Assembly (NCBI GenBank): GCA_014435945.1 | Contig: GCA_014435945.1_4088.1 | From: a phage | Reading direction: 5' to 3' (one strand) | DNA length: 64,000 bases | Part shown: one piece after another, positions 35,759 to 37,632 of the stretch | Layout of the letters: the number at the start of each line of letters is the position of its first letter | How positions within the stretch are numbered: the first letter of the stretch is position 1 | Program-made: the position numbers and the translations under genes | The notes under the pieces: generated by a model | The model's database searches: none | Told to the model about the DNA's origin: nothing | What the model saw: the letters and a program-made list of their open reading frames with translations, nothing else

Positions 35759-36874
35759 ATGAAAAAGTATTTGGTTGGTGGCTACGTTCGTGACCGTTTA
35801 ATGGGCATCCGTGCAAAAGACAAAGATTATGTTATTGTTGGTGCTACCGAATCCGATATTAAGTACTTGCAAAGTATTGGATACAAGCAAGTAGGTAAGG
35901 ATTTCCCTGTATATCTAAGTCCAGAAGGTAATGAACACGCATTAGCCCGTACTGAGCGTAAAACTGGTACTGGATATGGTGGCTTCGAAGTGAATACAAA
36001 AGGTGTGACACTAGAACAAGATCTATATCGTCGTGATCTCACAATCAATAGTATTGCATATGATCCAGTACTCCAGATTCACATCGACCCTTATGGCGGG
36101 AAAGCTGATATCAAGAACAAAGTACTTCGTCATGTATCAGAACACTTTAAAGAAGATCCATTGCGTGTTCTACGTTTGGCCCGTTTCGCTACGCGTTACT
36201 CCGACTTTACAATCCATGATGATACTATGACAATGTGTAAAGATATGGTTAGTACTGGTGAACTAGACCATCTAGTCCCAGAACGTGTATTTGTTGAATT
36301 CGAAAAAGCACTTTCTGAAGAAAACCCTTCCAAGTTTATCAAAACTCTGGTACAATTTGGTTATTACGAAAAGGCATTTACTACAGTTCCAGTTACCAAG
36401 AAACGTCTGGAATTAATTGATGCTATCGCTGCAAATTGTACAGAAGAATATAAACCATATTTCTTATGGACAGTACTTCTTGAAAATGAAGAAGTAAATA
36501 ATGATTCAGTACTTAACGGTTCCATTAAGGTTCCAGTTAAGTACGTGAAGTTTAGTAATTACATCAAGCGTTTCCGTGAAGATATTAAAACCTTCCGTAA
36601 GAAGACCCCAGTTGAAATGGGGCAAATCTTACTGGATATGAATATCAAAAACAATGGTGGTGAAGATTTCCTTTACAAAGTACTGGAAAACTTCATTTTG
36701 AACAAAGAAATTGATTCTGAACTTGAAGATTTGATTATTAAAGTTTATGATCGTTATACTGATGTTGAATTACCTGATATTCAGCAGTTAGTGAAAGATG
36801 GTGAACTCCAAACATCGGAGATTCGTGATTTTGTTGCTGAATTGCGTATTGAAGCAATCAAGCAAATGTTCTAA
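35759..36874 (+). CDS. cca: tRNA nucleotidyltransferase (CCA-adding enzyme)
   Basis: Head-domain motifs GGYVRDRLMG, DxD, RRDLTINSIAYD, ERKTGTGYGGF. Confidence 0.85.
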   Translation: MKKYLVGGYVRDRLMGIRAKDKDYVIVGATESDIKYLQSIGYKQVGKDFPVYLSPEGNEHALARTERKTGTGYGGFEVNTKGVTLEQDLYRRDLTINSIAYDPVLQIHIDPYGGKADIKNKVLRHVSEHFKEDPLRVLRLARFATRYSDFTIHDDTMTMCKDMVSTGELDHLVPERVFVEFEKALSEENPSKFIKTLVQFGYYEKAFTTVPVTKKRLELIDAIAANCTEEYKPYFLWTVLLENEEVNNDSVLNGSIKVPVKYVKFSNYIKRFREDIKTFRKKTPVEMGQILLDMNIKNNGGEDFLYKVLENFILNKEIDSELEDLIIKVYDRYTDVELPDIQQLVKDGELQTSEIRDFVAELRIEAIKQMF

Positions 36875-36898
36875 AAGCTGGGACAAGTTAACATCTTC

Positions 36899-36907
36899 TG
36901 ATATAAT
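36899..36907 (+). promoter_or_regulatory. extended -10 promoter element (TGATATAAT)
   Basis: TGATATAAT 43 nt upstream of the Nudix ATG. Confidence 0.4.
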
Positions 36908-36949
36908 TACTAGTATCTGAACATCACTTGATGATAAAGAGATAAGATT

Positions 36950-37394
36950 ATGCGTTATAGCTGTGGTATAATATTTTATCGTGATGGTCAGATACTTATC
37001 GGGCATACAACACGGACAGAATCACTGGGACTTACCTAAAGGTAAAACTGAAGGTACAGAAACATTTAAAGAGGCTGCTGTACGTGAATGCTACGAAGAG
37101 ACAGGATATGAAATCGATGAAGATGATCTTCTGTTTCTTGGTGATGTATCGTATAGAAAGGGGAAACGTTTAGTTTTATTTTTCTATACAGCCAAAGATA
37201 AGCCTATACCAGAAGAGTTGGTGTGTAAAAGTACTTACACAAACAGATATGGTAGAAGTCACCCAGAATTGGATAAGTTCATGTACATTGATGTACTAGA
37301 TTGTCAAAAGTATTTGACTGAACGAATGTGTAACAGTATAATAAAGGCTGTTACAATGTTTCAACGAAATAAAGGGAAAAGAAATGAAAGTTAA
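36950..37394 (+). pseudogene. Nudix hydrolase with apparent +1 frameshift near codon 25
   Basis: Frame A (ATG 36950) encodes Nudix-like N-terminus GIIFYRDGQILIGHTTR then stops at 37037; frame B (+1) encodes LPKGKTEGTETFKEAAVRECYEETGY (perfect Nudix box) to 37394. Confidence 0.55.
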
Positions 37395-37632
37395 AATTTA
37401 TGGTCGCACTACTGGTTGTAAATTCTGCGACACTGCTAAAGCAGTATGTGAAAATAACAAATTTGATATGGAGTTTATCGATATTGTTACCGCTGGTATT
37501 GATGGTGCTAAACTATCTGAACTATGTGGTGAGCCAGTACGACAGGTTCCACAAATTTTCGTAAACGATGTTTACGTTCCAGGTGGCTGTACTGGTTTCG
37601 TTGAAGGTCTTAAAGAAGGTCGCTGGAATTAA
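37384..37632 (+). CDS. glutaredoxin/thioredoxin-like protein (NrdC-like)
   Basis: 82 aa; active-site CKFC near N-terminus; size and pattern as T4 NrdC/NrdH-type redoxins. Confidence 0.7.
   Translation: MKVKIYGRTTGCKFCDTAKAVCENNKFDMEFIDIVTAGIDGAKLSELCGEPVRQVPQIFVNDVYVPGGCTGFVEGLKEGRWN

Follow-up and report, generated by a model that had tools for sequence, protein, structure and literature searches.

To our knowledge, established +1 recoding in bacteria and phages comprises a handful of cases, nearly all of which involve a stop codon or a slippery peptidyl site (P-site). Here we describe a Nudix hydrolase gene in a stretch of phage DNA (GenBank assembly GCA_014435945.1, contig GCA_014435945.1_4088.1), analysed at its full length of 64,000 nucleotides and referred to as the window in the following. 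The gene is split between two reading frames by one extra base, and we lean towards the view that its full-length enzyme is made by compensatory +1 ribosomal frameshifting at ACA_CGG_A, in a manner resembling the yeast element Ty3.

The bacterial gene prfB (RF2, CUU_UGA_C) likewise uses a +1 frameshift to fuse two open reading frames (ORFs) into one protein. However, prfB has a stop codon in the aminoacyl site (A-site), re-pairing from CUU to UUU and an upstream Shine-Dalgarno (SD) sequence, and the phage site is devoid of all three. Ty3 (GCG_AGU_U) is a eukaryotic system with a 14-nucleotide 3′ stimulator and a special P-site wobble, whereas no stimulator was found at the phage site and its P-site codon ACA is read by a cognate tRNA.

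In Escherichia coli (E. coli), CGG_C is among the A-site sequences favoured for +1 frameshifting, and tRNA-Arg(CCG) is of low abundance, with about 639 molecules in a cell (PMC2790909). Mass spectrometry confirmed +1 frameshifting for the gene yehP, the site of which is given as GTT_CGG_C (PMC2790909, FSscan study). Both yehP and the phage gene are translated in E. coli, with a rare CGG in the 0-frame A-site that precedes a +1-frame Gly codon; in both, the P-site tRNA re-pairs poorly in the +1 frame, and no stop codon takes part. However, the shift in yehP, to which no function is assigned, results in a truncated protein, and the predicted yehP cassette has an upstream SD-like GGAG; the shift in the phage gene would restore a full-length conserved enzyme, with A instead of C after CGG and no conserved SD-like element. 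Glass-sponge mitochondria display corrective +1 frameshifting at rare CGG_A/UGG_A codons, which was read as Ty3-like (PMC5009743). Much as at the phage locus, a single C or T inserted 5′ of GGA gives rise to an extremely rare 0-frame codon (CGG or UGG), the insertion is retained in evolution, and the protein is colinear with intact homologues; in contrast, the sponge case concerns animal mitochondrial translation and several genes, and the present one a single accessory phage gene and E. coli ribosomes. By analogy, the phage site would work most like the sense-codon, hungry-codon +1 frameshifting represented by yehP, Ty3 and glass-sponge mitochondria.

Two frames of one Nudix gene

Judged from nucleotide identity, the window and its Escherichia phage relatives are jumbo phages of the genus Asteriusvirus. 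The window region is 99.9% identical to the Escherichia phages Ecwhy_1, vB_Ec-M-J, fEgEco12 and others, and 81-86% identical to 121Q, PBECO4, JNE01 and Turkey5. The two-frame arrangement of the Nudix gene was confirmed from the letters of the window. As the initial annotation had read it, a first frame begins at ATG 36950 and meets a stop at 37037, the +1 frame carries a Nudix box and continues to 37394, and there is no homopolymer at the junction. An internal ATG had been placed at 36981; this position is GTG, and the internal ATG is at 36984. The elements of the gene are as follows:

36950-37039, plus strand: ORF-a, frame 0, from ATG 36950, 29 codons and TAA, product MRYSCGIIFYRDGQILIGHTTRTESLGLT
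36984-37013, plus strand: +1-frame stretch from the internal ATG, MVRYLSGIQH, not conserved, with GTG at 36981; start used in GenBank
37007-37016, plus strand: proposed shift site ACA_ACA_CGG_A, with P-site ACA at 37010-37012, 0-frame A-site CGG at 37013-37015 and +1-frame GGA at 37014-37016
37014-37394, plus strand: +1-frame coding part, GQNHWDLPKGK... through the Nudix box to TAA 37392-37394
37037-37039, plus strand: frame-0 stop TAA, terminating the unshifted 29-amino-acid product

Codons 1-21 of ORF-a correspond to strands beta1 and beta2 of the Nudix fold (MRYSCGIIFYRDGQILIGHTT). The +1 frame (ORF-b) is open from 36972 to TAA 37392-37394, includes HWDLPKGKTEGTETFKEAAVRECYEETGY and carries the Nudix box GKTEGTETFKEAAVRECYEETGY. 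Removal of base 37013 yields a joined protein of 147 amino acids, and since this protein is gap-free against more than 20 single-ORF orthologues, the two-frame layout is not a matter of chance. In phage A4, the frame-0 stop lies two codons further on than in the window. The gene had been called the second Nudix gene of this DNA; a regular-expression search for the Nudix box (strict and relaxed) over the window, which included no profile search for a divergent copy, matches this gene alone.

The conceptually joined protein was used as query for tblastn. The match is in one piece from residue 1 in GAP32, CBB, Serratia BF, Yersinia fHe-Yen9-04, EJP2, XaC1/XbC2 and Klebsiella phiKp_21, and also in Salmonella Munch/7t3/SE_PL and the Erwinia pEa_SNUABM phages. 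In the E. coli/Salmonella asteriusviruses, it comes in two pieces or begins only at residues 13-22. About 20 further intact genes were retrieved from IMG/VR and from Logan/ENA contigs, and the intact set includes many uncultivated viral genomes (UViGs), L042 and L043. The initial annotation named orthologues that all begin at the internal ATG as evidence against a split gene; outside the frameshifted clade, orthologues run in one frame from the upstream ATG. At the junction, G-H-(T/C/A)-T-G-Q-x-H-W-D-L-P-K-G is common to all intact genes, coded for example as CAT ACA ACC GGA CAA or CAT ACT ACT GGT CAG, and the window reads CAT ACA ACA CGG ACA G, i.e. with one extra base ahead of GGA. DNA alignment with intact orthologues identifies this base as C 37013 or, equivalently, A 37012. 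Upon deletion of C 37013, the protein is colinear with intact orthologues over 135 codons with 0 gaps.

Every E. coli/Salmonella asteriusvirus sampled, and one metagenome contig besides, has the frameshifted form ACA ACA C GGA. The extra base was read directly, in a context without homopolymer, in 12 independent sequences (the window, vB_Ec-M-J, 121Q, JNE01, Turkey5, ph0011, SD-1_S14, UE-S1, A4, CMSTMSU, TH47 and the metagenome contig OEQX01000033); for the approximately 25 remaining Asteriusvirus records, it was deduced from a split or late-starting tblastn match. Some of the records sharing the extra base differ at flanking synonymous sites.

Selection on the two halves was assessed by the Nei-Gojobori method among seven distinct frameshifted lineages (window type, 121Q, ph0011, UE-S1, JNE01, Turkey5 and A4). 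The downstream part (codons 22-135, +1 frame) displays a proportion of synonymous differences (pS) of 0.45-0.70 and of non-synonymous differences (pN) of 0.04-0.08; for the upstream part (codons 2-21, frame 0), pS is 0.15-0.44 and pN 0-0.022. The ratio pN/pS is thus about 0.1 for the downstream part and does not exceed 0.1 for the upstream part, and the seven lineages contain no additional indels or stops. With synonymous sites near saturation, the insertion must be old. These data show that both halves have been under purifying selection since the insertion arose, and provide strong evolutionary evidence that both are translated. As a separate observation, codons 2-21 reach about half the pS of the remainder, in the frameshifted and in the intact group alike.

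Within ORF-a, parsimony requires at least 10 substitutions (AGC/AGT, GGT/GGA/GGC, ATA/ATT, GGT/GGG, ATC/GTT, GGG/GGA/GGT and CAT/CAC), of which nine of ten fall on frame-0 third positions; the tenth is an Ile/Val exchange that is seen in intact orthologues as well. A binomial estimate of this third-position bias gives P of about 4e-4 against uniform positions, or 7e-3 without three A4-specific changes, which were set aside in this one estimate owing to the mosaicism of A4. The probability of at most one non-synonymous change in 10 under neutrality is estimated as about 1e-5. The N-terminal residues of ORF-a are identical or near-identical to those of intact orthologues. If the changes located 3′ of ATG 36984 are read in the +1 frame instead, all of them are non-synonymous. 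From 37017 on, it is the +1 frame in which changes are synonymous (CAG/CAA, CAC/CAT, GAC/GAT). Substitutions are hence in phase with frame 0 up to codon 19 and with +1 from 37017, and this flip, together with the alignments, puts the change of frame inside ACA ACA CGG A at 37007-37016. The switch region given in the initial annotation, about 37010-37025, is thereby narrowed.

Codons 14-16 (CAG ATA CTT, within 36986-36997) are nucleotide-invariant in the frameshifted and intact genes compared, and codon 13 is GGT in all of these save ph0011 (GGG); codons 13-16 vary in the more distant XaC1 and phiKp_21.

The product is, by prediction, a NudE-like phage Nudix hydrolase and ordinary as a protein. 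The Pfam family NUDIX (PF00293) matches ORF-b alone with 45.5 bits (9.6e-12; cut-off 21.1) at profile positions 26-97, and the joined protein with 49.4 bits at positions 7-97. The Nudix box GX5EX7REUXEEXGU lies at 37041-37109 (G31-KTEGT-E37-TFKEAAV-R45-E46-C-Y-E49-E50-T-G52-Y), its two U positions being C and Y in the window. Across the junction, the joined protein aligns to the Aquifex Ap4A hydrolase 3i7u (query residues 3-74, E 1.3e-8). An AlphaFold2 model was made of the intact orthologue P0005 as a stand-in for the joined protein of the window; P0005 is 80% identical to ORF-b by BLASTP and agrees with ORF-a over its first 16 residues. The model (predicted local distance difference test, pLDDT, 88.6; predicted template-modelling score, pTM, 0.81) displays strands at residues 3-8 and 14-19, with a mean pLDDT of 88 in block 1-10 and 93 in block 11-20, and the shift site maps to a loop at residues 20-25. 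Foldseek assigns the model to the Nudix fold, with probability 1.00 to Ap4A hydrolase 3i7u, RppH and Dcp2. The modelled strands and the earlier start of the Pfam match (7 versus 26) indicate that ORF-a encodes a structural part of the enzyme.

Among described phage enzymes, T4 NudE (gene e.1) is comparable: the joined protein is 35-39% identical to T4-type NudE genes over residues 4-113, and both are small phage-encoded enzymes of similar length with a Nudix box. However, T4 nudE is a single unbroken ORF, and the best structural matches of the asteriusvirus enzyme are Ap4A hydrolase, RppH and Dcp2.

In neighbour-joining trees of the repaired coding sequences, the frameshifted genomes formed one clade in 193 of 200 bootstraps before the intact metagenome gene L043 was added. 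Upon its addition, monophyly of the clade fell to 11 of 300 bootstraps, and L043 grouped with A4. Sliding-window and site-by-site comparison displays a patch shared by A4 (L040) and L043 between about +150 and +280 of the gene; in its flanks and in the shift-site region (+32 to +116), A4 sides with the frameshifted genomes. This recombinant patch disturbs the gene tree, and monophyly is lost for that reason. The simplest explanation appears to be a single origin of the insertion with later mosaicism. Degenerate pattern scans of IMG/VR and JGI metagenomes for HTT+1nt+GQxHWDLPKG alleles yielded the 121Q type only, with no second origin seen. The patch also places intact alleles within recombinational reach, and still the insertion is unrepaired in every sampled E. 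coli/Salmonella asteriusvirus. It may be added that the patch represents gene-internal mosaicism among these phages, with flanks that follow the genome phylogeny.

Proposed decoding at ACA_CGG_A

An ancestor of the E. coli/Salmonella asteriusviruses gained one base (ACA ACN GGA to ACA ACA C GGA), and the insertion persists in all descendants. For its decoding, we hypothesize the following course of events. When peptidyl-tRNA-Thr occupies ACA 37010-37012, the A-site would present CGG, for which the E. coli tRNA is scarce; the ribosome would stall, and may then take Gly-tRNA on the overlapping GGA 37014-37016 and go on in the +1 frame. The predicted product, ...LIGHTT-GQNHWDLPKGK..., has the sequence of the intact orthologues and would yield the junction tryptic peptide DGQILIGHTTGQNHWDLPK. 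Ribosomes that do not shift would terminate 8 codons on and release the 29-amino-acid peptide. We infer that ribosomes do shift here, and that decoding is Ty3-like without P-site re-pairing.

CGG is the rarest sense codon of the window ORFs, with 3 occurrences among 16,260 codons (63 ORFs, whole window), i.e. 0.2 per 1000 and 0.4% of the Arg codons. The next rarest codons are AGG (18) and CCC (20), and the guanine-cytosine (GC) content of the window is 36%. Among the plus-strand sites of the window, 37013 alone qualifies as a CGG-linked junction of frames 0 and +1; two others lie inside long +1-frame ORFs.

There are no tRNA genes in the window, and no tRNA for CGG is found in the tRNA clusters examined (121Q and fEgEco12). 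The tRNAs of 121Q (L048 12683-17970) are Gly(UCC), Ser(UGA), Ser(ACU), Met, Asn and Thr(UGU), with no tRNA-Arg by ARAGORN; ACA in the P-site and GGA in the +1 frame are served by these tRNAs, but the 0-frame CGG is not. In fEgEco12 (L037 14988-15141), which belongs to the subgroup of the window, Ser (two), Met, Asn and two Thr(UGU) in tandem are present, with no tRNA-Gly. A phage tRNA with a four-base anticodon was considered and rejected: the loops of the two fEgEco12 tRNA-Thr(UGU) have 7 nucleotides, and the ARAGORN calls are all of the ordinary three-base kind. The GenBank annotation of 121Q also lists a tRNA-Leu(taa), for which there is no ARAGORN call.

A programmed frameshift, one of several possibilities named in the initial annotation, is best supported by colinearity, selection and the rare CGG, although it is not proven. 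Several points weigh against frameshifting at ACA_CGG_A. Since tRNA-Thr(UGU) cannot re-pair on CAC, P-site slippage of the prfB/Ty1 type is ruled out and out-of-frame decoding of GGA is the sole simple route; judged from the codons, re-pairing is impossible and only the less efficient Ty3-type route is left. The +1 codon GGA is not abundant in the decoding capacity of E. coli, and the subgroup of the window is without a phage tRNA-Gly. An upstream SD-like stimulator is not conserved, the upstream Gly codon varying between GGG, GGA and GGT. A downstream stimulatory RNA structure was rejected as well, with a single-sequence z of -0.76, which is not significant, and with 0 compensatory pairs and a positive covariation term in the fold of the seven-lineage alignment; it has to be considered that some known +1 sites are without a stimulator. 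Low pS in ORF-a was rejected as a clade-specific signal, as intact relatives are alike in this respect (a/b ratios 0.47 and 0.59). The rarity of CGG is not independent evidence for selection of a signal, since an insertion before GG creates CGG automatically. The codons ACA, ACA and GGA are invariant across the seven lineages, with 12 of 34 other four-fold sites invariant (P about 0.04), and each has three synonymous forms in intact relatives; this invariance is suggestive, at marginal significance. Finally, ATG 36984 and a +1 frame open to the Nudix box are present in every clade member, so that independent initiation is conceivable.

Beyond compensation, the site may be a selectively maintained programmed +1 frameshift on the non-slippery ACA_CGG_A, which would set the dose of the enzyme and serve as a sensor of host translation rather than being a tolerated lesion. 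We consider this a tentative extension with the odds rather against it. If true, the dose of the Nudix enzyme would be set by scarce host tRNA-Arg(CCG) versus the phage-supplied Gly(UCC) and Thr(UGU) tRNAs. It would then, as far as we know, be without precedent among bacteriophage genes as a conserved case of Ty3-type sense-codon +1 recoding. In the literature searched, there was no report linking Asteriusvirus or phage Nudix genes with frameshifting.

The site would offer a natural, easily cloned 10-nucleotide E. coli case for studying hungry-codon frameshifting without P-site re-pairing. The annotated GenBank records all begin the Nudix coding sequence at the internal ATG, and no database record annotates a ribosomal slippage join for this gene. 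Approximately 35 GenBank records hence list an internal-ATG product of 131-136 amino acids in which two strands of the fold are missing; should ribosomes indeed shift, a ribosomal_slippage join would be due in these records.

Alternative explanations

It is conceivable, though unlikely, that the enzyme consists of two pieces, namely the 29-amino-acid ORF-a peptide and an ORF-b product started at ATG 36984 or GTG 36981, which would form a non-covalent Nudix fold split between beta2 and the WDLPKG strand. This would explain purifying selection on both ORFs equally well; the split point lies in a loop of the modelled fold, and the ATG with its open +1 frame is shared by all clade members. That the +1 frame is open 5′ of the shift site is uninformative as evidence for internal initiation, as usual codon preferences account for it: the codons ATA/GTA would close it, and ATT/ATC/GTT are commoner. 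The codon pair GAT-GGT which gives rise to ATG 36984 is found in intact relatives too, and is therefore ancestral rather than a derived adaptation. Initiation at this ATG would have to occur out of frame within an ORF under translation, and the residues that it would add are unconstrained: MVRYLSGIQH occurs as MVRYLLVIQH, MVRYLLDTQH, MGRYLSGIQH and MVRYLSDIQH, and all substitutions in 36984-37013 are non-synonymous in the +1 frame (V/G, S/L, G/D/V, I/T); read in frame 0, they are synonymous or conservative.

The energy of the anti-SD duplex is -2.8 kcal/mol for ATG 36984 and -2.9 kcal/mol for ATG 36950, so that the internal start is no worse than the upstream one; both are in the weakest fifth of the gene starts of the window, and SD strength was dropped as a discriminator. 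A perfect extended -10 element (TGGTATAAT, 36963-36971) is located inside ORF-a, about 10 nucleotides 5′ of GTG 36981/ATG 36984. It could drive a near-leaderless ORF-b transcript, or be due to chance; it is present in most frameshifted genomes, but it is not conserved, being lost in ph0011 and A4, and it is absent from intact relatives. We know of no naturally split Nudix domain. If the enzyme does consist of two chains, the gene would represent such a domain, which would be equally unreported.

Still less probable is that the truncated product from ATG 36984 is functional alone, with ORF-a kept as a regulatory upstream ORF or via recombination with intact alleles. A product from the internal ATG had been suggested by the initial annotation, and it matches all GenBank annotations, which use the internal start; it leaves the frame-0 conservation of 21 upstream codons unexplained. 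Recombination with intact alleles does occur in the gene, as indicated by the A4/L043 patch at about +150 to +280. However, conversion tracts that refresh ORF-a would often repair an insertion 10-60 nucleotides away, and the insertion is retained everywhere. In frame 0, ORF-a has kept the ancestral Nudix amino-acid sequence, which a regulatory upstream ORF would not require, and the truncated product would be without two modelled beta-strands and 19 Pfam profile positions. Both the two-chain and the truncated explanation predict an N-terminus of ORF-b of MVRYLSGIQHGQ / MVRYLSGIQHGQNHWDLPK and the C-terminal tryptic peptide TESLGLT of ORF-a.

Other kinds of recoding would fit the selection data in each variant, and nevertheless appear very improbable. 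In a 7-nucleotide hop from CAU 37004-37006 to CAC 37011-37013, take-off and landing codons are cognate to one tRNA-His and stand 7 nucleotides apart in the correct phase, and the take-off codon of A4, CAC, is still compatible. However, the codon after CAU is the common ACA, which offers no trigger, and the hop would delete the residues before Gly (TT, CT or AT) that intact orthologues keep; it predicts ...LIGH-GQNHW... and the peptide DGQILIGHGQNHWDLPK. A +1 shift after CGG predicts ...HTTR-QNHW..., but tRNA-Arg(CCG) is unable to re-pair on GGA. Four-base decoding is at odds with the examined phage tRNAs, which have ordinary 7-nucleotide loops or three-base anticodon calls.

The possibility that the gene is a decaying pseudogene with an inherited inactivating mutation is effectively refuted by the sequence comparisons. 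A frame break with a stop 8 codons on is the usual signature of a pseudogene. However, the plain inactivating mutation considered in the initial annotation is contradicted by the strong purifying selection on both halves within the frameshifted clade, with the low pN/pS ratios persisting at near-saturated synonymous divergence; seven lineages have accumulated no more indels or stops, and the start codon, the promoter-like site and ORF-a are all intact.

An error in sequencing or assembly of the window record, for which nothing speaks beyond the frameshift itself, is excluded by an extra base that is identical across many laboratories, platforms and a metagenome contig at a site without homopolymer. 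CMSTMSU (L046) does contain homopolymer-length errors elsewhere in the gene, and none at the shift site. In this record (UNVERIFIED_ORG), GGGG to GGG and GGG to GG at locus positions of about 560 and 774 split ORF-b into small annotated ORFs, and these G-run differences look like sequencing errors.

Gene neighbourhood and upstream promoter-like site

The features flanking the Nudix gene are as follows:

35759-36874, plus strand: CCA-adding tRNA nucleotidyltransferase, upstream neighbour (Pfam PolyA_pol, 5.5e-19)
36880-36907, plus strand: putative sigma-70-like promoter, GGGACA-16 nucleotides-TGATATAAT, extended -10, just 5′ of ORF-a
37384-37632, plus strand: glutaredoxin, downstream neighbour (Pfam Glutaredoxin, 9.8e-9)

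By consensus scan, the promoter-like site has 10 of 12 consensus matches with TG, and the segment 36880-36907 may act as a promoter. Both GGGACA and TGATATAAT are kept in the frameshifted clade and in the intact L043; in the intact L006 and Munch, GGGACA is kept and the -10 element is weaker. The combined promoter motif has no second copy elsewhere in the window. A conserved GTATCTGA follows 3′ of the promoter-like site.

The glutaredoxin gene shares 11 nucleotides (37384-37394) with the 3′ end of the Nudix gene. The order CCA-adding enzyme, Nudix, glutaredoxin, two small ORFs and macro-domain protein is kept across all relatives. The segment 35759-38690 of the window thus represents a cluster for RNA ends and nucleotide metabolism (CCA-adding enzyme, Nudix, glutaredoxin, macro domain) which is common to all Rak2-like jumbo phages examined. 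In XaC1, a gene annotated as tRNA amidotransferase occupies the same place in the cluster. In EJP2 (L004 1501-2178), Nudix and glutaredoxin are fused in one ORF of 225-227 amino acids (PF00293 and PF00462), and a single Nudix-glutaredoxin ORF of this length is also found in six metagenomic protein clusters (P0007, P0009, P0014, P0015, P0018 and P0023).

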